Sequence record: PZ452579.1
DNA: 64,000 nt
Strand: one strand, 5' to 3'
From: a phage
The notes beneath the pieces were generated by a model that worked only from the letters and a program-made list of their open reading frames with translations, did not search any database and was not told the origin of the DNA. How positions within the stretch are numbered: position 1 is the stretch's first letter; each line of letters opens with the position of its first letter. This document shows, piece after piece, positions 4,343-58,363 of the stretch. Both the position numbers and the translations under genes were made by a program.

Positions 4343-5190
4343 CCAGGACAATGCTTTATACGTTTCTGCATCATGTCAGTAGATAATATTACATCTTCAA
4401 CTCGAACCATAATCTCTTCATTAGAGTGTACTCCAAGGTCCAAATACACTGAACGAGATACTAAAGCTTGAAGGTGGGGAGCAAGTTTCGAACCGCGTTC
4501 TAACTCTTTATCGATATCAACGTTTGTAATGAAAACAATAGTACCTTCAAACTCAAATTCTTTATCAATACCCTTATCATCGAGATAAGATGACGCAGTG
4601 CTCCAACAAACTTTGCGTTTATCTCCGGTATCTAATGCTGCTTTAAGAAGGTTCAAGATGTCCATATCTGAGAATACGTCAACGTCGTCGATTAAGAGAA
4701 CGCTGTCTGCATCACGGTTGAGCCAAAGTTGTTCGTAAAGGCCAATACCAGAGATTTTACCATTAATACTTTTGTATTTGATGAAACCATTATCATTAGC
4801 ATTATTAAGTGCTTTATCCAGAGAATACGTCTTACCAATACCGGCTGCACCTGAAATAATGAGTGAACGAATTTTGCCATCGATAATACCATTCGTCATC
4901 ATGTTCATTACTTTAAAGCGTTTGTTGATACGAGTTTTCATATCTTCAGTGCTTTCAACAACTGCAACTGGTGATGTCTCAACTCCTTCCATTACGATGT
5001 CTGATTTGAAGACCCATACTCCACGTTCAGAACCATCAATCATAACGAAAATTTTACCGTCACCTAAGTGGGAACATTCAGGATTAAGCTTTGCCGGGAA
5101 CCATGTCTTTGTGGCAACATAAGAACCAGAGATTTCGTTATTACGATAGATACCTTTTTTGATTTGAACGTTGAACATTTTATTCTCCAA
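4339..5190 (-). CDS. P-loop NTPase (AAA-like ATPase) with N-terminal extra domain
   Basis: 283-aa ORF; Walker A GAAGIGKT and Walker B-like LLIDDVD. Confidence 0.6.
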   Translation of the reverse strand: MENKMFNVQIKKGIYRNNEISGSYVATKTWFPAKLNPECSHLGDGKIFVMIDGSERGVWVFKSDIVMEGVETSPVAVVESTEDMKTRINKRFKVMNMMTNGIIDGKIRSLIISGAAGIGKTYSLDKALNNANDNGFIKYKSINGKISGIGLYEQLWLNRDADSVLLIDDVDVFSDMDILNLLKAALDTGDKRKVCWSTASSYLDDKGIDKEFEFEGTIVFITNVDIDKELERGSKLAPHLQALVSRSVYLDLGVHSNEEIMVRVEDVILSTDMMQKRIKHCPG

Positions 5191-7051: not shown

Positions 7052-7594
7052 TTATTTCAAAGTTGGGATAATAGAATCAAGATAAGCTTTAAGAGCAACT
7101 GCTTCATCTTTGTCTAATGTAATGATATGTTGACGAAGGTCATCAATTTGGCGAATAACTACGACATCACCGTCTTCATAAGAAGGATTAACTCCCAGGA
7201 CTGTTGTATAGTCAGGGCGGTCCTGATTTGTAATAAAAGCATTACGGCATTTAGCCCATTGAAGTTTGGCCTTTTTGGCTGTTTCAGATTCCATGAATTC
7301 TTTCACCTTAGCGACAAATGTTTTCCAATTATTAATAGAAAAACATTCATCTTCGGTTTCGATATTAACCCCACTATAAAGTCCGTGATAAAAACGAACT
7401 TGAAGGTCTTCATCAATGTTAATTACAGATGCATGACCGGGTGGATTGAGTTTCAAAATCTTGTCTAGTTCCATAGGAAGAATAGTAACAACATCATCTT
7501 CTTGCGTCAGAACGTACGCATAACCACGTTTTTCGATACATAAATCACCAAACAACTCAGTCGTTTCAATTACAGTTTTCATATTATTCACCAA
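7052..7594 (-). CDS. hypothetical protein
   Basis: 180-aa ORF. Confidence 0.5.
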   Translation of the reverse strand: MVNNMKTVIETTELFGDLCIEKRGYAYVLTQEDDVVTILPMELDKILKLNPPGHASVINIDEDLQVRFYHGLYSGVNIETEDECFSINNWKTFVAKVKEFMESETAKKAKLQWAKCRNAFITNQDRPDYTTVLGVNPSYEDGDVVVIRQIDDLRQHIITLDKDEAVALKAYLDSIIPTLK

Positions 7595-7694
7595 TTAAAG
7601 TTTCAACAAAATTCACCAAATCATTCTGACGAGCATCAATCTGATTTCTATAAAAATTAAATAAGATCCATCAATTTATTAGCTTGTTCACAGG

Positions 7695-7805
7695 TCATTT
7701 TACCATACTCGCTTCAATAAGATTCATTACACCATTTACCATGTTATACGTAAACATCGGATAATTGTATTGTACTACAACATAAGCAATAAGCAAAAGT
7801 TTCAT
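7695..7805 (-). CDS. small hydrophobic hypothetical peptide (36 aa)
   Basis: ATG with GGAG RBS; MKLLLIAYVVVQYNYPMFTYNMVNGVMNLIEASMVK; lies in a 270-nt gap; below ORF-track cut-off. Confidence 0.2.
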   Translation of the reverse strand: MKLLLIAYVVVQYNYPMFTYNMVNGVMNLIEASMVK

Positions 7806-8983: not shown

Positions 8984-9286
8984 TTAGATAGATGTAGGCT
9001 CTAATTTTATTTTCATGAACTCGGCAAATTGTCTGGCAGTTTTTATGCCTTGTTCATGACATTCAAATGCATCATCACAGGGGCTATTTTTGTAATGCTT
9101 TGCCATATACTTATAAAATTTTTCAGAATTCTCAACATTTTGAATTTCGAACAAAGTATATACGTTTTTAATCCCTGATTCCATAAAGTTGTCAAAGTAC
9201 GGGTCGACATATGCAGTGCCAACGATAGGAGTTGTTGCTGCAAAAAACCCCAGCATCGCCACAATGGCTATCGCTCTTAAGGCCAT
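8984..9286 (-). CDS. rI: lysis inhibition regulator rI-like membrane protein
   Basis: 100-aa ORF; N-terminal signal-anchor; resembles T4 RI as I recall it; sits beside tk as in T4. Confidence 0.65.
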   Translation of the reverse strand: MALRAIAIVAMLGFFAATTPIVGTAYVDPYFDNFMESGIKNVYTLFEIQNVENSEKFYKYMAKHYKNSPCDDAFECHEQGIKTARQFAEFMKIKLEPTSI

Positions 9287-13755: not shown

Positions 13756-14295
13756 TCATTGCATTCCAATCACAAAAAATTGAGGACGAGCATTACCGCC
13801 GATGCAATATTTGCTTTTGCAGCAGTGCTGTAATGTTTTAATGTGGACGTTGTAAATCTTATCCATATCAGGAGCTTTAATAGGCTCGTCAATTATATAC
13901 AGAATACGAGAAAGCGTTAATCCACGGAATTTAGAACCTTCATTGCCAATAAAACTACGAACAGAATCAGTAAATAAACGGAATCGAATATCATCGCTAG
14001 AATAACGAGAAAATTCTTTTTCAATGTTGCCAGCAGAAATTTTAGCATAAGCTGAAGTATTAGAAAGAACAATAACTGTTCCGCCATCATACAACCAATT
14101 AGCAGCAAAGTTAGTCACAGCAATTGATTTACCGGATTGACGTCCACCGTCTAAACGAAGTGTACAGTACTGTTTGAGTACGTCTTCAAACGGTGGGATA
14201 TAACCATTCTTACAAATTTCTTCTACTCTAGCATCAGAATGGTGTGTAAAAGCATTCATCAGGGATAGATAAGGACCAGTTAAAAATGTTCTCAT
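13756..14295 (-). CDS. hypothetical protein with Walker-A-like motif
   Basis: 179-aa ORF; DGGRQSGKS motif; weak promoter-like GTTTAC upstream. Confidence 0.5.
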   Translation of the reverse strand: MRTFLTGPYLSLMNAFTHHSDARVEEICKNGYIPPFEDVLKQYCTLRLDGGRQSGKSIAVTNFAANWLYDGGTVIVLSNTSAYAKISAGNIEKEFSRYSSDDIRFRLFTDSVRSFIGNEGSKFRGLTLSRILYIIDEPIKAPDMDKIYNVHIKTLQHCCKSKYCIGGNARPQFFVIGMQ

Positions 14296-14356
14296 TTAGT
14301 TTCTCTTTTAGGTTGGGGCCATTCCGTGGCACATGTTAGGTCCTTCGACTCGCTAT

Positions 14357-14394
14357 GTAAACCCATTACCGCATTGCGCTCGACCTTATTACAG
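14357..14394 (-). promoter_or_regulatory. weak early-type promoter candidate
   Basis: GTTTAC with poor -10 (TAACAT) upstream of 13756..14295. Confidence 0.3.
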
Positions 14395-14468
14395 GTTGGA
14401 AAAGGTACATCACTCAGAGGACTCGACGTTCATGAGGAGAGGTTGCGTTTCCCTTTATTAGGCAAGAA

Positions 14469-14798
14469 TTATACTCTAGGCTTTTGAGCTTGTTTGGTAT
14501 TGGATTCCCATGCGGCTTTGGTAATTTTGTTAGCGGCATAACCAAAGGCATTAGATAGAACACCTTTAGAGTTGAATACATCCAATCCAATAAGTACACC
14601 GGCTGTGTTAAATTTAGGAGCAAAGTACGCATTAGTTTTAGAAAGAGCTTTTTTCAATTCAGGGTCTTGAACCAAGCCATCAAAAACGCCTTTACTATTT
14701 ACTTTATATGTTACTTTGGGATTTTTACCTTCTTCGATAGCAGCTTTCTGTTCCGCAGATAATGTAACTTCAGTGATAAACTCTTGATACGTTTTCAT
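14469..14798 (-). CDS. internal-protein-like capsid-targeted protein
   Basis: 109-aa ORF beginning MKTYQEFITE (capsid-targeting sequence, predicted prohead-protease cut after Glu10). Confidence 0.75.
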   Translation of the reverse strand: MKTYQEFITEVTLSAEQKAAIEEGKNPKVTYKVNSKGVFDGLVQDPELKKALSKTNAYFAPKFNTAGVLIGLDVFNSKGVLSNAFGYAANKITKAAWESNTKQAQKPRV

Positions 14799-14823
14799 TT
14801 TGTTCCTATTGTTTTAATTTATG

Positions 14824-15138
14824 TTATTCTTTAGGGAAGTTTTTAGAGTATGCGTCATAAAGTTTATTACCGATGCGACGGAAGACTTTAGCTGCAAAAC
14901 GGTTTTCAGGGTTTTTAATCATGATTTGCATCATGTAAGTTCCTGCATCCGAAAGAGCTTCTTCGTAGTACCCATTAATTTCTTTAAGAGTCCTACGTTT
15001 ACCACCAGGACCATCAACAGTAATTTTCCATTTACCTGTAGAAGTGCGGCTCGGTGGCTCAACTTGTTCAATCCAAATATAACCACCTTCAACGCGTTGG
15101 TTGGCGGATTCTGCAATAAATTCTTTATATGTTTTCAT
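14824..15138 (-). CDS. internal-protein-like capsid-targeted protein
   Basis: 104-aa ORF beginning MKTYKEFIAE; promoter element upstream (15156-15199). Confidence 0.75.
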   Translation of the reverse strand: MKTYKEFIAESANQRVEGGYIWIEQVEPPSRTSTGKWKITVDGPGGKRRTLKEINGYYEEALSDAGTYMMQIMIKNPENRFAAKVFRRIGNKLYDAYSKNFPKE

Positions 15139-15155
15139 TTTTTGTTTCCTTGTTT

Positions 15156-15199
15156 GTTTTGATAGAGTAATTATACCATATTAATACTTAAGCGTAAAC
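15156..15199 (-). promoter_or_regulatory. early-type promoter element upstream of an ip-like gene
   Basis: GTTTAC-N17-GTATAAT then TACTCTATCAA. Confidence 0.5.
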
Positions 15200-15202
15200 A
15201 AT

Positions 15203-15463
15203 TTAAGCTTTACCGCCAGAAATAATTCCGAAGTTGTTAAAATCGTATCCAATATCGTCAACATCTACTTTAGGACTTACTACAACATAAGCAATTTCAC
15301 TACGTTTTGCATAGGTGTTGATTTCTTTACCATCGCCACCTAAGAAAGAATACCCATTACGTTTTAATGAGCCAAAGTCTTCCGCATCACCAATGAAAGC
15401 TTTAACTTTAAATTTGGGGTCTTTGGCATCTGCTTCAGCTATAAATTCTTGATACATTTTCAT
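15203..15463 (-). CDS. internal-protein-like capsid-targeted protein
   Basis: 86-aa ORF beginning MKMYQEFIAE. Confidence 0.7.
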   Translation of the reverse strand: MKMYQEFIAEADAKDPKFKVKAFIGDAEDFGSLKRNGYSFLGGDGKEINTYAKRSEIAYVVVSPKVDVDDIGYDFNNFGIISGGKA

Positions 15464-15469
15464 TTTTCC

Positions 15470-15883
15470 TTAGTAAATTGATTTACCATAGTATTTGTAC
15501 CAAGTCGGACGTTGAGCAATTTTTTCATCTAAGCGTGCTTGACTTATCGCAATGGACGCTTCGGACGGGACGTAATTATTACGAAATTCTACAGGGATGT
15601 CGGAAATATCCTGGACAGTCGTGTCCTTGATTTTGAAACCACGTTTCAAACATTCGGCGATTAGCTCGATTTGTCGTAAACGTAAAAATTCAAGTTTGTC
15701 GTAAAAGAATGTTACGTGACCTGTGCCTAAGATAAATGTTGGAGAGATTTTAAAATCCTTTACACGTTTACCGTTTTGAACATGTTTACGGACTGCACCA
15801 AATACGCGTGGTAATTCACGATACTCAGCCATAAGATGTTGGTCGGTCAGTTCAGAAACAAGTGTTAAATTGATACGGGTCAT
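15470..15883 (-). CDS. denV: endonuclease V (pyrimidine-dimer DNA glycosylase)
   Basis: [31 protein letters not shown]... closely matches T4 DenV; ATG at 15883 with GGAGG RBS (track ORF begins at upstream TTG). Confidence 0.9.
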
Positions 15884-15910
15884 AATTTCCTCCAAGTAGT
15901 TGATGAATGT

Positions 15911-15940
15911 ATAGTATCAAAACCCTTGGAGGAAGTAAAC
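15911..15940 (-). promoter_or_regulatory. early-type promoter element upstream of denV
   Basis: GTTTAC-N18-TACTAT; GGAGG RBS then denV ATG. Confidence 0.5.
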
Positions 15941-15941
15941 A

Positions 15942-16238
15942 CTATTTTTCTGAAGCGCCTGAAATATATTTTTCAAGTCGTTGCTTCATTAGCGAGCCGT
16001 TCTTAGCGATTTCTTCCGGTTTATCGCACATACGTAACAAGGCTTCAAGCTTAGCGATATCGCTGGTACGTTCAAATTTGCGAGTATCTATCTTACTAGC
16101 AAGTTCAGAAATACGTGCTAATAGACTTTCGGCTTCAACCAAAGCTGCACCTAGCTTAGTTGCAAATGTGTCAGTAGCTTCGTTAAGAATAGATTCTGAT
16201 AAAAATTCACTATATGTTTTCATATATACGCTTTCCAA
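15942..16238 (-). CDS. internal-protein-like capsid-targeted protein (ipII/ipIII position)
   Basis: 98-aa ORF beginning [10 protein letters not shown]; immediately downstream of gene e. Confidence 0.7.
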
Positions 16239-16708
16239 GTTCCTGTTTTAAATGTTGAGATTACGCGTTTCGCGCGATTAGGTGTCTGACGATACCATTT
16301 AGATTGGGCTAGATTTACTGCCGCCTCGTCCCAACGTTTCTGTTGAAGCATACGAAGAGAATTAGTAAAACCGGCGACGCCTGCTACACCCATTTGGAAG
16401 ACCATATTGACCAATGCACATCGACGAACCGCATCTAAAGAATCATATACCGGTTTAAGTTTAGCATTACCCAAGATTCCGCGAACGGCTTTATCAACGT
16501 CTTCATTAAATAGCTTTTCAGCCTCATCAAGGGTAATTGTACCGTTGCATTTACGTCCGATCATTCTGTCAAGTTCAGCTTTAGCTACGGCTAAAGACGG
16601 GTTCTTTGTTACTAAATGGCCTATGCCAATCGTCCAAAAGCCTTCAGTGTCTTTGTATAAAGTCAGTCTAAGACCTTCGTCATTACGAAGCATTTCAAAT
16701 ATATTCAT
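16220..16708 (-). CDS. e: endolysin (T4 lysozyme, gene e)
   Basis: [32 protein letters not shown]... closely matches T4 lysozyme; start taken at MNIFEM. Confidence 0.95.
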
Positions 16709-16742
16709 AATACCTCCCACGTTTATAGGAGGTATTTATTAC

Positions 16743-17201
16743 TTATAGGAGGGTAGTGAGCACCTTATATAATGATTTGCCCATTACATATTCCCATTGA
16801 GAAGGTTTAATTAAAGCGAATGCATCAAATTCAGGAATCTGTCGTCCGTCTGGGAATGTATGATAGGAATTACAAACACTGTTTCTGAATTGCTCGTGCT
16901 CTACAGGGATGGTATATTGGAACAGATGAATATTCTTATTGTCTGAGTAATGATGTTCACCTAGGTCTTTCAGGAAGGCAGGGTCATATTGTGTAAACCC
17001 AGTTTCTTCTTCGCATTCACGAATAGCGGCTTCAATAGGAGATTCGCCAGGTTCGACACGGCCTTTAGGAATATCCCACCGATGAGCTAATGCACCTTTA
17101 GGACGAGAACCAGTTACACGCCCCATGAATAATTCTTTATCTTCGGTAAGGAAAATAATACCGGCTGATAGTTCTTTCACTTTATTTTTCTTACTCATCA
17201 T
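16743..17201 (-). CDS. nudE: Nudix hydrolase
   Basis: 152-aa ORF; Nudix box GRVEPGESPIEAAIRECEEETGF; adjacent to e as T4 e.1. Confidence 0.85.
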   Translation of the reverse strand: MMSKKNKVKELSAGIIFLTEDKELFMGRVTGSRPKGALAHRWDIPKGRVEPGESPIEAAIRECEEETGFTQYDPAFLKDLGEHHYSDNKNIHLFQYTIPVEHEQFRNSVCNSYHTFPDGRQIPEFDAFALIKPSQWEYVMGKSLYKVLTTLL

Positions 17202-17442
17202 CTCGGTCCCATGATTTGGCCATTAATTCGGACATAAATTCTTCAATACGCGTTTCTTTAGATGGACTTTCACTATTAGAGACCGCAAGTTTGTAATCTG
17301 CAATAGGACAGAACATATCAAGGTCCATATTAAGGTCGTCTTTGATTTTTTCTTCTGACACATCTTTATCGTATGTGTACAGATAACTATCACATGATTC
17401 TGATTTAATGTAAATTGCTATACTCATCTCAAATTCCTGCAT
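17191..17442 (-). CDS. hypothetical acidic protein
   Basis: 83-aa ORF. Confidence 0.4.
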   Translation of the reverse strand: MQEFEMSIAIYIKSESCDSYLYTYDKDVSEEKIKDDLNMDLDMFCPIADYKLAVSNSESPSKETRIEEFMSELMAKSWDRDDE

Positions 17443-17903
17443 TCGGTAATAAAACGTTCAACTTCATTATTCTTGGCTTTTATCTTGTCTTTATGTTCTT
17501 GTAAACTACTTTTAACAAGATTAATAATGATGCCTACAGCACCTCCACCAATAATACCACCAATAATACTTACGATAGTAGATGCTAATACGATAGCGAT
17601 AATATCTAGTACAGCAAAGGCACTTACTTTAGTACTAAAAAACCATACCGACGGTACAAATATAATCCATCCTGTTATCCATTGACACTTATTGAAAAAC
17701 TTTTCAAGCTCAGCTTGAGTTGTTCGTATTACTTCATCGATAGGTTGATATCCATTAATGTATCTGTTCACGATAATACCTGCTGGCTGGTCGATTTTAA
17801 ATTCTTGGCAAATATGTTTCACTAAGTAGGATGGACATCCTGTCCAATCTACTGAATAATACGAAATACCTTCGTTGCCATCATCTATATTATTGTTAAT
17901 CAT
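17424..17903 (-). CDS. predicted membrane protein
   Basis: 159-aa ORF with long Gly/Ile-rich hydrophobic segments. Confidence 0.5.
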   Translation of the reverse strand: MINNNIDDGNEGISYYSVDWTGCPSYLVKHICQEFKIDQPAGIIVNRYINGYQPIDEVIRTTQAELEKFFNKCQWITGWIIFVPSVWFFSTKVSAFAVLDIIAIVLASTIVSIIGGIIGGGAVGIIINLVKSSLQEHKDKIKAKNNEVERFITECRNLR

Positions 17904-18589
17904 TACCAGCCTTCCATAGGGAATTCCAGATAAACTTGAGCGTTGACACGAATTTCATTGGTAATCTTTTTAACTCGGTCTGTATTACGAGATACACGCC
18001 CGAACCAACGCCATCCATTACTAATTGCACGAGAACCAGTGTGCCATGTTTGCCAATCAAACTGAAGAAGAGTACGGTCTGGAGCTTCCCATTTCTCTAG
18101 TTCGCCTTTTTCGATTTTTTCGAGGACTTCTTTGTGCCACTGACGATAGATAAGTTCGCCATCAGGAATCTGACTGAACTCTGCAGTTCCTGTTGCAAAA
18201 TGAGTAGGACACACATCAGCGTTAACAAGACCAAGAATATGTTCAGAATGGTAACGAGGGTTGTCATAATCAGGTTGTCCTGCAGTAATAAAGTGTTGAC
18301 CAACCGGAATATCCGGGCGTGGTACATCGTCATGGTGATATCCAGGAATAGCAGGGTACCAACCAGGCATCAGCATGTGGACTCGTGAATCAAATACAAC
18401 CTGGTCGGTGTTCCAATCATCCGGCAAGTTCATGATAAAGCTACGAGTAATTGGGCCGCCATTATCAAAAGCAAAATTCAAATCGCAGTTAAAGAACATA
18501 GGCTCGTTTTTAATCTGGTCGTTTTTAATCGCATGAGCAAAACCACCTACTGCACGAGCTTGACTATTAAACACTTTAGAACTATTCAT
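17903..18589 (-). CDS. hypothetical His-rich protein (possible metal-dependent enzyme)
   Basis: 228-aa ORF; His clusters (GYHHDD, HSEH, WHTGSR). Confidence 0.5.
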   Translation of the reverse strand: MNSSKVFNSQARAVGGFAHAIKNDQIKNEPMFFNCDLNFAFDNGGPITRSFIMNLPDDWNTDQVVFDSRVHMLMPGWYPAIPGYHHDDVPRPDIPVGQHFITAGQPDYDNPRYHSEHILGLVNADVCPTHFATGTAEFSQIPDGELIYRQWHKEVLEKIEKGELEKWEAPDRTLLQFDWQTWHTGSRAISNGWRWFGRVSRNTDRVKKITNEIRVNAQVYLEFPMEGW

Positions 18590-24194: not shown

Positions 24195-24758
24195 TTATTT
24201 ACCTAGTTTAGTTATTATAGCTTCGGCAGCAGCTTTTAGCTTAGATGCAGTGTTAATACGATTTTTAATTTCAGTATACGCATCGCCAAGAACATCAAGG
24301 CTATCAGAATAAACACTTACACTATTGCGTTCGCTATTTGAAATAGAACCTTTAGTTTTACGATCAAAATCAGTGTACACGTCTTGAAGATCACGGGCTG
24401 CCTTCTTTGCATCATCCAATGCATCAAGAGCTTTATTCAAAGCATTGACATATTTTTTAGTGTCAAACATATTCTTAGAAATTTTAACAGGTGCACGTTC
24501 AGGAGTAGCTAAGGCGGATTTAGGAACCTGCGTGCCAGATGCCAGTTTCTTAGAAATTTTGAAAAACGCTTTATTGAAACTATTTTCTTGTCTCATCGTA
24601 AAAGAACTAGTATCGATGTTATACATTTCAATAGCTTTAGCTTTCCACTTAAGAAAATCGCCGCGGTCTTTTGGATCCAAGTGGAAGAATACTTTAGTAA
24701 GATCTGCTTCAGATGGTAATTTTGCTGCTTCGGTTAAAAATTCGGCATAGGTTTTCAT
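24195..24758 (-). CDS. internal-protein-like capsid-targeted protein (IPIII-sized)
   Basis: 187-aa ORF beginning MKTYAEFLTE; terminator hairpin downstream. Confidence 0.7.
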   Translation of the reverse strand: MKTYAEFLTEAAKLPSEADLTKVFFHLDPKDRGDFLKWKAKAIEMYNIDTSSFTMRQENSFNKAFFKISKKLASGTQVPKSALATPERAPVKISKNMFDTKKYVNALNKALDALDDAKKAARDLQDVYTDFDRKTKGSISNSERNSVSVYSDSLDVLGDAYTEIKNRINTASKLKAAAEAIITKLGK

Positions 24759-25550: not shown

Positions 25551-25627
<77 letters not shown>

Positions 25628-25633
25628 AATATA

Positions 25634-25707
25634 TGACCCAGACCAGATTCGAACTGGTAACCTTTCCCTTATGAGGGGACTGCTGCTAACCATTGAGCTA
25701 CAGGGCC
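25634..25707 (-). tRNA. tRNA with anticodon CAU (Ile2/Met type), no encoded CCA
   Basis: Hand-folded: acceptor GGCCCTG/CTGGGTC (one U-U mismatch), anticodon loop CUCAUAA, T-arm ACCAG-TTCGAAT-CTGGT; 6 nt upstream of tRNA-Arg. Confidence 0.65.
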
Positions 25708-27211: not shown

Positions 27212-27487
27212 TTATTTCAAATATATTGCGTATTTTTTATAGCCACCAGGCTCGTGTCGAAGACCTTTATCATTCGCAAAACGTTGAATGTTATTGAACT
27301 GATTTTCATCAAGTTCGGATGTGTCAAATATAAAAAAGTTTCGTTTGTTACCAAGCGTGATATGCGGAGTTAAGTCAATGTTATACAAATTAAGAATATC
27401 AGCAATAACCTGATTGACTGCTTTGTTAATTTTCACACCAGACGATTCTGAGATGAATTCGTTGAAAGTTTTCATTTTAGGTTCCAT
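27212..27487 (-). CDS. internal-protein-like capsid-targeted protein
   Basis: 91-aa ORF beginning MKTFNEFISE; promoter element upstream. Confidence 0.7.
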   Translation of the reverse strand: MEPKMKTFNEFISESSGVKINKAVNQVIADILNLYNIDLTPHITLGNKRNFFIFDTSELDENQFNNIQRFANDKGLRHEPGGYKKYAIYLK

Positions 27488-27536: not shown

Positions 27537-27848
27537 CTATTTTATGCCTTTAGATGAAATAGTATTCTGGCGTTTGACCCCAGTTTGTGAAAAATCATGG
27601 TTATCAATTTGGTCAACTCGCATAACACCAAACGCAGATTTAATTTTGGCCTTTGAACCTTTTTTGATACTAATTACCATATAAGTATCATTTTTCTTAT
27701 ATTCGAAATTTGATACTTCAACGCCTTGATTAGAAATTGACTTAATAATAGCATTAGCGTATTCATCATCTAACGGGCCGTTAGTGTTAATAACAAAATT
27801 TTTATCCGCTTTAGTAGCTTCCGCGATGAATTCTTGATAGGTTTTCAT
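27537..27848 (-). CDS. ipI: internal protein I-like capsid-targeted protein
   Basis: 103-aa ORF beginning MKTYQEFIAE; adjacent to 57B as ipI in T4. Confidence 0.75.
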   Translation of the reverse strand: MKTYQEFIAEATKADKNFVINTNGPLDDEYANAIIKSISNQGVEVSNFEYKKNDTYMVISIKKGSKAKIKSAFGVMRVDQIDNHDFSQTGVKRQNTISSKGIK

Positions 27849-56214: not shown

Positions 56215-56451
56215 ATGGACGATTTAATTCAAGCTATTAAATCAAACGACCTCGTTGCTACTCGAAAGTTTTTTGAAAGTGCAATGGCAGAAAAAACGGT
56301 TCGTTTGATTGAAGCACGCAAAGCAGAAATCGCTTCTCAATTTTTGATTGAAGGCGAAGAACCTGAAGAAGAAAAGAAAGCTAAAGCTTCGGAAGACGAC
56401 GCTGATGAAGGCGATGACGACGAAGACGAAGATGATGAGGACGATGAATAA
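56215..56451 (+). CDS. 67: prohead core protein gp67
   Basis: 78-aa ORF with poly-acidic C-terminus ([18 protein letters not shown]). Confidence 0.9.
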
Positions 56452-56876
56452 TGTATCTTATCCCTGAATCTTATGAATTGGTACTCGAAAATGTCGAAGC
56501 ACTTATTCCTGAAGCACAGGGCCGAATCGATGCATTGTCTTCTGCTCTCGATATTGACGATATAAATACTATTATCGAGAACATGCTTGAAACTGAAACG
56601 GATTTAGCTGTTGCAATGGCTTCCATTATTAATGAAGAACAGTTAAATGAGTTTATCGTTAAACATGTTTCTTCTCGTGGTGAAGTCACCCGCACTAAAG
56701 ACCGTAAAACTCGTGAACGTAACGCGTTCCAAACCACTGGTCTTTCTAAAGCAAAACGTAGACAAATCGCTCGTAAGGTCGTTAAAGCTAAAAAAGCTAA
56801 CCCTTCAGGCCAAGTTAAAGGCTTGCGTAAGCGTAAAAAGGCTCTTAAACGTCGTAAAGCATTAGGATTAAGCTAA
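56451..56876 (+). CDS. 68: prohead core protein gp68
   Basis: 141-aa ORF with basic C-terminus; T4 order. Confidence 0.9.
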
Positions 56877-57517
56877 TGAATAAACCCGAGTTACTTATTG
56901 AAACTTGGGGTCAACCCGGTGAGATTATTGATGGCGTTCCAATGTTGGAATCTCATGATGGAAAAGATTCTGGCTTAAAACCAGGGCTTTATATAGAAGG
57001 TATTTTTCTTCAGGCAGAGGTTGTTAACCGAAATAAACGTTTATATCCTAAACGCGTTTTGGAAAAAGCAGTAAGTGACTATATTAAAGAACAAGTCGCA
57101 ACCAAACAAGCCCTTGGAGAATTAAACCATCCACCTCGCGCAAATGTTGACCCTATGCAAGCCGCTATCATTATTGAAGATATGTGGTGGAAAGGAAACG
57201 ATGTATATGGGCGCGCTAGAATTATTGAAGGCGACCATGGTCCCGGCGATAAATTAGCTGCTAATATACGAGCTGGTTGGATTCCAGGTGTTTCCTCTCG
57301 TGGTCTTGGTTCTTTAACCGACACCAATAAAGGGTACCGTATCGTGAACGAAGGATTTAAATTAACCGTCGGCGTAGATGCCGTATGGGGACCTTCTGCT
57401 CCAGATGCTTGGGTTACTCCTAAACAAATATCAGAATCAGAAAATTCGGTGGAAATCACCAAAAACAGTGCTGACGAAGCATTTAAAGCTCTCGCAGAGA
57501 GTTTAAAAGCATTATAA
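56876..57517 (+). CDS. 21: prohead core protease gp21
   Basis: 213-aa [19 protein letters not shown]... Confidence 0.95.
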   Translation: MNKPELLIETWGQPGEIIDGVPMLESHDGKDSGLKPGLYIEGIFLQAEVVNRNKRLYPKRVLEKAVSDYIKEQVATKQALGELNHPPRANVDPMQAAIIIEDMWWKGNDVYGRARIIEGDHGPGDKLAANIRAGWIPGVSSRGLGSLTDTNKGYRIVNEGFKLTVGVDAVWGPSAPDAWVTPKQISESENSVEITKNSADEAFKALAESLKAL

Positions 57518-57550
57518 ATAATAATGTAATCTAAACCACAGGACACTAAA

Positions 57551-58363
57551 ATGATCAAAGAACAACTTTTGAAAGAAGCTCAGAATATCGAGACTTCAGT
57601 TGCTCTTAATAGTGTTTTCGAATCAGTAGAACTGTCTCCGGACGTTAAAGCTAATTTCAGCACTGTATTCGAAGCCACCGTTAAGCAGGAAGCAGTCAAA
57701 CTGGCTGAATCTCATATCAAAGCCATCGCCGAAAAAGCCGAAGAAGAAGTTGAAAAGGCTAAAGAAGATGCTGAAGAGAAAGCTGATAAAAAATTGGCTG
57801 AACAAGCTTCTAAATTCCTGGACCATCTTGCAAAAGAATGGCTCGCAGAAAACCAAATCGCAGTTGATAAAGGCATTAAAGCTGATTTGTTCGAATCCAT
57901 GCTTGGTGGTCTGAAAGAACTGTTTGTTGAACATAACGTTGTTGTTCCAGAAGAATCTGTAGATGTTGTAGCAGAAATGGAAGAAGAGCTGGCCGAACAT
58001 AAAGAAGAAACCGCTCGTTTGTTCGAAGAAGTTACCAAACGTGATGCATATATCAATTACGTTCAGCGTGAAACCGCTATTAATGAAAGCGTGAAAGACC
58101 TGACTGAATCTCAGAAAGAAAAAGTTATTGACCTGGTTGAAGGTATGGATTATTCTGACGCATTTGGTACTAAGTTAACTGCTATTGTAGAAATGGTTAA
58201 AGGTTCTACTAAAGAAGAAGCCGCTATTACCGAAAGTATAAATACAGTTGACAATGACGCTGCCGGTCTTAATTTTGTTGCCGAAGCAGTTGACACTACC
58301 ACAACTCAGGTAGAACAGAATTCTAATGTAAGTTTATATGCGAAAGTCGCATCTCGTTTCTAA
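57551..58363 (+). CDS. 22: prohead core scaffold protein gp22
   Basis: 270-aa acidic alpha-helical ORF MIKEQLLKEAQNIE... Confidence 0.95.
   Translation: MIKEQLLKEAQNIETSVALNSVFESVELSPDVKANFSTVFEATVKQEAVKLAESHIKAIAEKAEEEVEKAKEDAEEKADKKLAEQASKFLDHLAKEWLAENQIAVDKGIKADLFESMLGGLKELFVEHNVVVPEESVDVVAEMEEELAEHKEETARLFEEVTKRDAYINYVQRETAINESVKDLTESQKEKVIDLVEGMDYSDAFGTKLTAIVEMVKGSTKEEAAITESINTVDNDAAGLNFVAEAVDTTTTQVEQNSNVSLYAKVASRF
58237..58244 (+). promoter_or_regulatory. candidate late promoter inside gene 22
   Basis: TATAAATA 144 nt upstream of the gene 23 ATG, within the gene 22 coding region. Confidence 0.4.

Follow-up and report, generated by a model that had tools for sequence, protein, structure and literature searches.

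Four predicted internal-protein genes around denV in a phage of the RB69 group are candidate anti-restriction effectors

Results

A tagged gene array around denV

The 64,000-nucleotide stretch of phage DNA in sequence record PZ452579.1 (hereafter the window) carries four small open reading frames (ORFs), ORF1 to ORF4, which lie on the minus strand around the endonuclease V gene denV (Table 1). We consider it likely that their products belong to the T-even internal-protein class, that is, proteins targeted to the prohead, trimmed by the protease gp21, injected, and most likely neutralising defence nucleases. Each of the four is headed by a ten-residue sequence of the form MK[TM]Y.EF[IL].E (hereafter the tag), in which Tyr4 and Phe7 are invariant and residues 8 to 10 form the (I/L)-x-E cleavage motif of gp21 (ITE, IAE, IAE and LSE from ORF1 to ORF4). 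In the genetics of the T4 internal protein IPIII, the first ten residues suffice for head incorporation, residues 4 and 7 are the chief ones for targeting, and residues 8 and 10 are important for gp21 cleavage (PMC9026906). Cutting after Glu10 is predicted to leave mature proteins of 8.2 to 10.8 kDa (about 8–11 kDa). Six-frame translation of the whole window gave six matches to the strict motif and one relaxed match, compared with none in 200 shuffles and an analytic expectation of 4e-6 for the window, and the tag is therefore not a chance pattern.

An initial annotation of the window, made from the letters alone, had described four ORFs with this tag, and both the sequence check and the shuffles agree with it. 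Its coordinates stand for ORF1 to ORF3 but not for ORF4, whose start is the ATG at 16223, overlapping the stop codon of the endolysin gene e (ATGA) in agreement with the RefSeq gene model of Escherichia phage APCEc01; position 16238 belongs to an upstream TTG that adds MESVY. The minus strand of the array was not given there, and three further tagged ORFs were missed (the fifth to seventh tagged genes of Table 1), which bring the predicted internal proteins in the window to seven.

ORF1 to ORF4 are real coding genes, because the changes among relatives are mostly synonymous, homologues occur in 91 to 497 phage records and every start codon is preceded by a GGA-rich, Shine-Dalgarno-like ribosome-binding sequence. 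Against APCEc01 and Mosigvirus S143_2, synonymous and non-synonymous codon differences numbered 5:0 and 1:2 for ORF1, 8:0 and 6:0 for ORF2, and 6:0 and 5:1 for ORF4, with 6:1 and 7:1 for denV as a comparison; ORF3 gave 3:4 among close Mosigvirus relatives. When the mature bodies (the proteins beyond the tag) were searched by tblastn in 50,697 phage records, matches were found in 91 records for ORF1, 190 for ORF2, 218 for ORF3 and 497 for ORF4.

Unrelated bodies and their families

The window genes resemble those of T4 IPII and IPIII (MKTYQEFIAE) in the ten-residue tag, the (I/L)-x-E motif, their place between e and vs.8, the size range, the early-promoter style upstream and the presence of protease and core genes; the bodies, in contrast, are without detectable similarity. 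With the first ten residues cut off before BLASTP, E values were at least 1.6 among the four bodies and at least 0.3 against T4 IPI, IPII and IPIII, and tblastn found no homologue of these three proteins in the whole window at E < 1e-3. The mutual unrelatedness asserted in the initial annotation is thus borne out, for ORF1 and ORF2 also by hhalign (see below), and its proviso that the bodies might turn out to be ordinary T4 IPII or IPIII is contradicted by the lack of similarity to the T4 proteins.

By sequence, ORF2 is Ip10 and ORF4 a member of the Ip5 family. The ORF2 body shares 96.8% identity with PP01 ip10 and 72% with VR7 ip10, whose GenBank note names RB69 ORF124c and the Ip10 of phage Pol. 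ORF4 shares 47.6% identity over 84 aa with RB14 Ip5 (E = 4e-20), described in the RB14 annotation as 'similar to ... RB69ORF127c', and matches PHROG 3499, 'internal head protein' (2e-46); its body is probably helical. ORF3 has 73% identity to VR7 ORF127c and the RefSeq label 'internal head protein'. ORF1 is the sole gene of the array that lacks an internal-protein name, being 'hypothetical' in nearly all of the 30 matches listed. Among these matches it is confined to Mosigvirus, with copies 97–100% identical, and Dhakavirus, with copies about 32% identical; despite this low identity, the Dhakavirus homologue keeps the tag (WG01 ORF115, MKTYQQFITE). In terms of the polymorphic T-even series Ip4–Ip12 (Repoila et al. 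1994, cited in PMC3012670 and PMC12373910), with which the window genes have in common the concept of a conserved tag on unrelated bodies in hypervariable loci, ORF2 corresponds to Ip10 (97%), ORF4 to the Ip5 family (48%) and the seventh tagged gene to the Ip7 family, whereas the families of ORF1 (RB69 ORF123c) and ORF3 (RB69 gp125, VR7 ORF127c) bear no Ip number in the records examined.

Two PHROGs cut across these families, one (PHROG 3966) being matched by ORF1 as well as ORF2 (~1e-32) and the other (PHROG 2667) by ORF3 as well as the Ip7-family gene. Hidden homology within either pair was ruled out by hhalign of body-only alignments, which gave probabilities of 0.2% and 0.35%, and the shared PHROGs are therefore probably an artefact of clustering on the ten-residue tag. 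PHROG membership is consequently unreliable for the internal-protein class. A recent transfer of Ip10 between Tequatrovirus PP01 and the Mosigvirus phage of the window was also considered and discarded, since the nucleotide identity of Ip10 (88.7%) lies between the values for the flanking vs.8 (87.6%) and vs.6 (92.6%) and shows no anomaly.

A variable locus shared with other T-even phages

From about 12 to 31 kb, all genes of the window are on the minus strand, and the transcription order is nudE, e, ORF4, denV, ORF3, ORF2, ORF1, a gap and the vs.8 homologue, with ORF3 starting 7 nt past denV. The array sits in one of two hypervariable Ip loci (e-to-vs.8; the other is 57B-to-tRNA). In T4 the order is e, ipIII, ipII, denV, vs.8, with only 26 nt between denV and vs.8, compared with the 173-nt gap that separates ORF1 from vs.8 in the window; three of the four window genes thus follow denV in transcription order, at a place without any gene in T4. 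The initial annotation had stated that T4 has only ipII and ipIII here and a different layout around denV, and the T4 gene order confirms this: because T4 has no gene between denV and vs.8, the difference is real.

The novelty that the initial annotation implied for the array does not survive comparison with other phages. The four genes and their order around denV recur in RB69, whose genome dates from 2003 (NC_004928, 63.4–65.2 kb: e, gp127, denV, gp125, ORF124c, ORF123c, vs.8), with bodies 95–100% identical, and over the 2.1-kb region the window matches Escherichia phages p000y, G53 and APCEc01 (genus Mosigvirus, RB69 group) at 98% identity. Beyond this group, the interval holds e, ORF118, ORF117 (IPIII-like), denV, ORF115, ORF114 and vs.8 in WG01 (Dhakavirus), with the tag on all four ORFs; e, p131, denV, p129 (Ip10-like) and vs.8 in CC31 (Karamvirus); and e, denV, ip10, ORF127c, ip7 and vs.8 in VR7 (Gaprivervirus). 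From the gene orders in these three phages, internal-protein genes flanking denV on both sides are common. PP01 has e, ip10, ipIV and vs.8, and no denV, and RB14 has e, Ip4 and vs.8. The e-to-vs.8 interval is a variable internal-protein site across the subfamily, and the T4 layout is one of its states.

The RB69 record departs from the window in three of these genes. ORF124c has a different, shorter C-terminus than ORF2. The ORF1 orthologue ORF123c (7450–7779 of the compared RB69 segment) has Ala10 in place of the Glu10 of the cleavage position. In the ORF4 orthologue ORF127c, a 1-nt deletion is followed 21 nt on by a 1-nt insertion (9141–9221 of the compared segment), and this compensated frameshift scrambles tag residues 5–11 (MKTYMNFYQNL...). 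The window carries intact versions. Either the sequencing of 2003 introduced errors into the two imperfect RB69 tags, or they are natural variants in which the tag is inactivated. The ORF3 orthologue of APCEc01 (4903–5157 of the compared segment) is annotated two codons shorter (MYQEFIIEV...), without the Met-Lys of the tag.

Gene gain and loss at the tag

It is an old idea that the conserved tag also serves as a site of recombination through which whole genes are gained and lost. An additional gene for an IPIII homologue, the fifth of the array, separates Ip10 from ORF1 in Mosigvirus S143_2, and the insertion has its two junctions within the ATGAAAAC(G/A)TAT of the tag-coding sequence (window 14787–14823 compared with 800–837 and 1405–1442 of the S143_2 segment). 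To the left of the insertion, S143_2 and the window agree in every letter across the intergenic spacer and up to coding nucleotide 12 (ATGAAAACGTAT) and then diverge; to the right, identity returns at TATCAAGAGTTTATCACT of ORF1. ORF1 of the window uses a 5' leader which in S143_2 belongs to ipIII. The position of both junctions in tag-coding sequence fits the tag as a recombination joint and suggests that neighbouring genes recombine through their tag-coding sequences, whereby whole genes are gained or lost, and the array as a whole would appear to evolve in this manner.

Promoters

The best sigma-70-type promoter match in the region is the T4-early-type site upstream of ORF2 (Table 1), and the same GTTTAC...TATAxT architecture is seen upstream of T4 ipII and ipIII. 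Two late-promoter octamers with one mismatch each were found upstream of e (TATAAGTA at 16740–16747 and AATAAATA at 16733–16740), where T4 has two exact TATAAATA octamers at the equivalent position. The 173-nt gap between ORF1 and vs.8 contains a promoter-like site for vs.8 (TTTACA-17-TAACAT) and has no Rfam match.

Other tagged genes and prohead machinery

The fifth to seventh tagged genes are located near the second known Ip locus, beside 57B and tRNA genes. The window and RB14 (ncORF136c) carry the 187-aa gene in unbroken form; in the RB69 record, a frameshift splits it into ORF148c/149c (17429–17991 of the compared segment). The 87-aa gene occupies the place where T4 and RB69 have ipI, and the seventh shares 45.5% identity with VR7 ip7 (E = 4e-22). 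Two tRNA genes (25554–25707, minus strand) separate the tagged genes near 24–28 kb into their two groups; RB69 has only two tRNAs here (Arg, Met) and T4 has eight. An Rfam scan of the window returned only these two tRNAs (25.5–25.7 kb) and nothing within the array. The window also encodes a gp21-type protease and prohead core genes (Table 1).

Table 1. Positions of the array, its neighbours and related genes in the window
Feature	Position	Strand	Description
vs.8 homologue	13756–14295	-	PHROG 1488 (8e-78); downstream boundary of the variable interval; synteny with T4, RB69, PP01, WG01, CC31 and VR7
Gap between ORF1 and vs.8	14296–14468		173 nt, non-coding
ORF1	14469–14798	-	109 aa; MKTYQEFITE and 99-aa basic body, pI 9.7; orthologue of RB69 ORF123c
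ORF2 (Ip10)	14824–15138	-	104 aa; MKTYKEFIAE and 94-aa basic body, pI 9.6
Promoter-like site upstream of ORF2	15170–15198	-	T4-early-type; TTTACG, 17 nt, TATAAT with upstream TG; consensus match only
ORF3	15203–15463	-	86 aa; MKMYQEFIAE and 76-aa acidic body, pI 5.2; orthologue of RB69 gp125
denV	15470–15883	-	Endonuclease V, pyrimidine-dimer glycosylase; Pfam PF03013 Pyr_excise (3e-14); PHROG 1183 (2e-62)
ORF4	15942–16223	-	93 aa; tag and 83-aa body, pI 6.3; Ip5 family
e	16220–16708	-	Endolysin; Pfam Phage_lysozyme; upstream boundary of the array
nudE	16743–17201	-	First in transcription order here
Fifth tagged gene	24195–24758	-	187 aa; MKTYAEFLTE; PHROG 2280 'unknown function'
Sixth tagged gene	27212–27475	-	87 aa; MKTFNEFISE; PHROG 7673 'internal head protein' (7e-49)
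Seventh tagged gene	27537–27848	-	103 aa; MKTYQEFIAE; Ip7 family; adjoins 57B; orthologue of RB69 gp156
Prohead core/scaffold genes	56215–58363	+	gp67-like, gp68-like, gp21 and gp22-like; PHROGs 1064, 1049, 207 and 237
gp21-type prohead maturation protease	56876–57517	+	PHROG 207 head maturation protease (2e-78)

Searches for fold and function

Neither Pfam nor sequence searches of the PDB gave anything significant for ORF1 to ORF4. A CsgH-like identity of Ip10 was dropped, its weak Pfam (E = 0.074) and PDB (E = 0.79) matches being below threshold and the structure model not supportive. The AlphaFold2 model of ORF2 reached a mean predicted local distance difference test score (pLDDT) of 69, which is moderate, with a beta-beta-alpha-beta-alpha layout, and a fold search with this model gave no informative match; that of the ORF1 body, with a mean pLDDT of 53, was too poor for a fold search. 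The alignments used for structure prediction were shallow because single-protein homologue searches returned only two to three near-identical clusters each. The four bodies joined as one query gave no match in a large protein collection.

An exhaustive HMMER search with the ORF1 body found, beyond itself and the Dhakavirus homologue, only large repeat proteins. The apparent kinship to these (MBG_2, cadherin-like and YD-like 'YNxxGxL' hairpin-repeat proteins) consists of summed weak matches and was judged not to be homology. Residues ~60–80 of the ORF1 body, VFNSKGVLSNAFGY (VYNKKGLLKSSYG in Dhakavirus), resemble a single YD/MORN-like 'Y-N-x-x-G-x-L' beta-hairpin, hence the weak summed matches; the resemblance of this segment to the repeat proteins is probably not homology.

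Discussion

The conserved Tyr4, Phe7, Ile/Leu8 and Glu10, taken together with the protease and core genes of the window, point by way of T4 genetics to targeting of the four proteins to the prohead core, trimming after Glu10 and injection with the DNA. The initial annotation had read the genes as encoding capsid-targeted internal proteins, and the locus and the family names lend this further support. The proteins would be made with the ten-residue capsid-targeting sequence; transcription of their genes would probably start at the early-type site in front of ORF2 and also come by read-through from the late promoters that precede e. Through Tyr4 and Phe7, the tag would then steer each protein to the scaffolding core of the assembling prohead, where the gp21 protease of the same window would cut after Glu10 at (I/L)-x-E. 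The mature 8–11 kDa proteins would remain in the head with the DNA and enter the host with it. Once there, each would most likely block one narrow variant of a first-response nuclease against sugar-modified cytosines, with GmrSD-family type IV restriction enzymes as candidates by extrapolation from T4 Ip1, Ip2 and Ip3.

T4 Ip1, Ip2 and Ip3 are inhibitors of GmrSD type IV restriction enzymes, a different one in each case, and the genes of "the two Ip loci" have been proposed all to target variants of the GmrSD system (PMC12373910). The DNA to be protected would differ from that of T4, which has glucosylated cytosines: in the genus of the window phage the cytosines are arabinosylated, and such Mosigvirus DNA is cut by GmrSD/BrxU enzymes (PMC6024577, PMC13390438) and targeted also by END nucleases (PMC12191111). 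Given the T4 precedent and these attacks on arabinosylated DNA, an anti-restriction role is our best guess for ORF1 to ORF4, as candidate effectors, and an anti-defence reading is the current consensus for the internal-protein class.

Several observations weigh against this interpretation. The proteins ip4–10, which include Ip10 (the family of ORF2) and Ip5 (the family of ORF4), gave no reproducible inhibition of eight active GmrSD systems (Silas et al.). The classic internal proteins IPII and IPIII are basic, but ORF3 and ORF4 range from acidic to neutral, and the structure models, moderate for Ip10 and poor for ORF1, offer no functional clue. A canonical TATAAATA late promoter was not found inside the array, the one-mismatch octamers upstream of e being the only ones, and virion proteomics or N-terminal data for the ORF1 to ORF4 proteins or for RB69 were not found in the literature. 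From the RB69 record, with its Ala10 and its scrambled tag, it follows that an intact tag is not universally maintained or that the record has sequencing errors.

The four proteins might instead be packaged and have a generic physical role only, in charge neutralisation, DNA condensation or ejection, with their divergence reflecting weak constraint. The basic bodies of ORF1 and ORF2 (pI 9.6–9.7, as in IPII and IPIII), the roughly 300 copies of each T4 internal protein and their binding to DNA at low salt (PMC9026906), and the failure of Ip4–10 to inhibit GmrSD reproducibly are all in keeping with such a role. We nevertheless regard it as improbable, since close relatives within each family differ mostly synonymously, which argues for constraint on the specific sequence. 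Two of the bodies, those of ORF3 and ORF4, also lack a basic character, each of the three T4 internal proteins proved to have a specific target, and presence or absence gene by gene among close relatives fits host-specific selection.

A role in the cell rather than in the virion strikes us as less probable still. One or more of the four would then be early accessory proteins that are not, or not mainly, packaged, and the tag a hitch-hiking remnant of shuffling. The early-type promoter directly upstream of ORF2 and ORF1, the activity of tag-less IPIII from the cytoplasm (PMC9391042) and the two imperfect tags of the RB69 reference speak for this, and a tag-coding sequence that acts as a recombination joint could be retained for that reason. 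T4 ipII and ipIII likewise have early promoters, however, and their products are packaged all the same. Moreover, the four targeting and cleavage residues are kept in all four genes and in the Dhakavirus ORF1 homologue of about 32% identity, which argues for selection on the peptide and not only on the DNA. We give practically no credence to the notion that ORF1 to ORF4 are chance open frames or pseudogenes: only their small size would suggest it, and it is refuted by conservation in 91–497 phage genomes, alongside the synonymous bias, the Shine-Dalgarno-like sequences and the 4e-6 motif matches expected by chance. Membership of the T-even internal-protein class, with packaging and most likely an anti-defence function, is the interpretation that we retain.

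A narrower question is whether one or more of the four, once injected, inhibit a defence outside the GmrSD variants paired with Ip1–3. We think this rather unlikely, though clearly less so than the alternatives above. The best candidates would be ORF1, which is unnamed and restricted to Mosigvirus and Dhakavirus among the matches listed, and the acidic ORF3. Possible targets are nucleases or glycosylases that act on arabinosylated cytosine, for example BrxU-like GmrSD variants, END nucleases and defence DNA glycosylases. If so, inhibitor and target would form a new pair, and the small inhibitor would have a new fold.

The array itself is already known: it has been in the RB69 sequence since 2003, two of its families are named and a third is labelled as an internal head protein. 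The principle of a conserved tag on unrelated bodies, like the hypervariable locus, goes back to 1994 (Repoila et al. 1994). The value of the cluster is thus that of a work list within a well-described framework and not of a discovery. There is a small practical gain in that the ORF1 family (RB69 ORF123c), given as "hypothetical" in nearly all records examined, can be annotated as an internal protein. The cluster further provides a ready list of four small candidate anti-restriction proteins, or seven across the window, from a genus with arabinosylated DNA. Because internal proteins arrive with the phage DNA and act before phage gene expression, they help to set which wild E. coli strains can be infected, and this effect on host range is relevant to the choice of phages for therapy.

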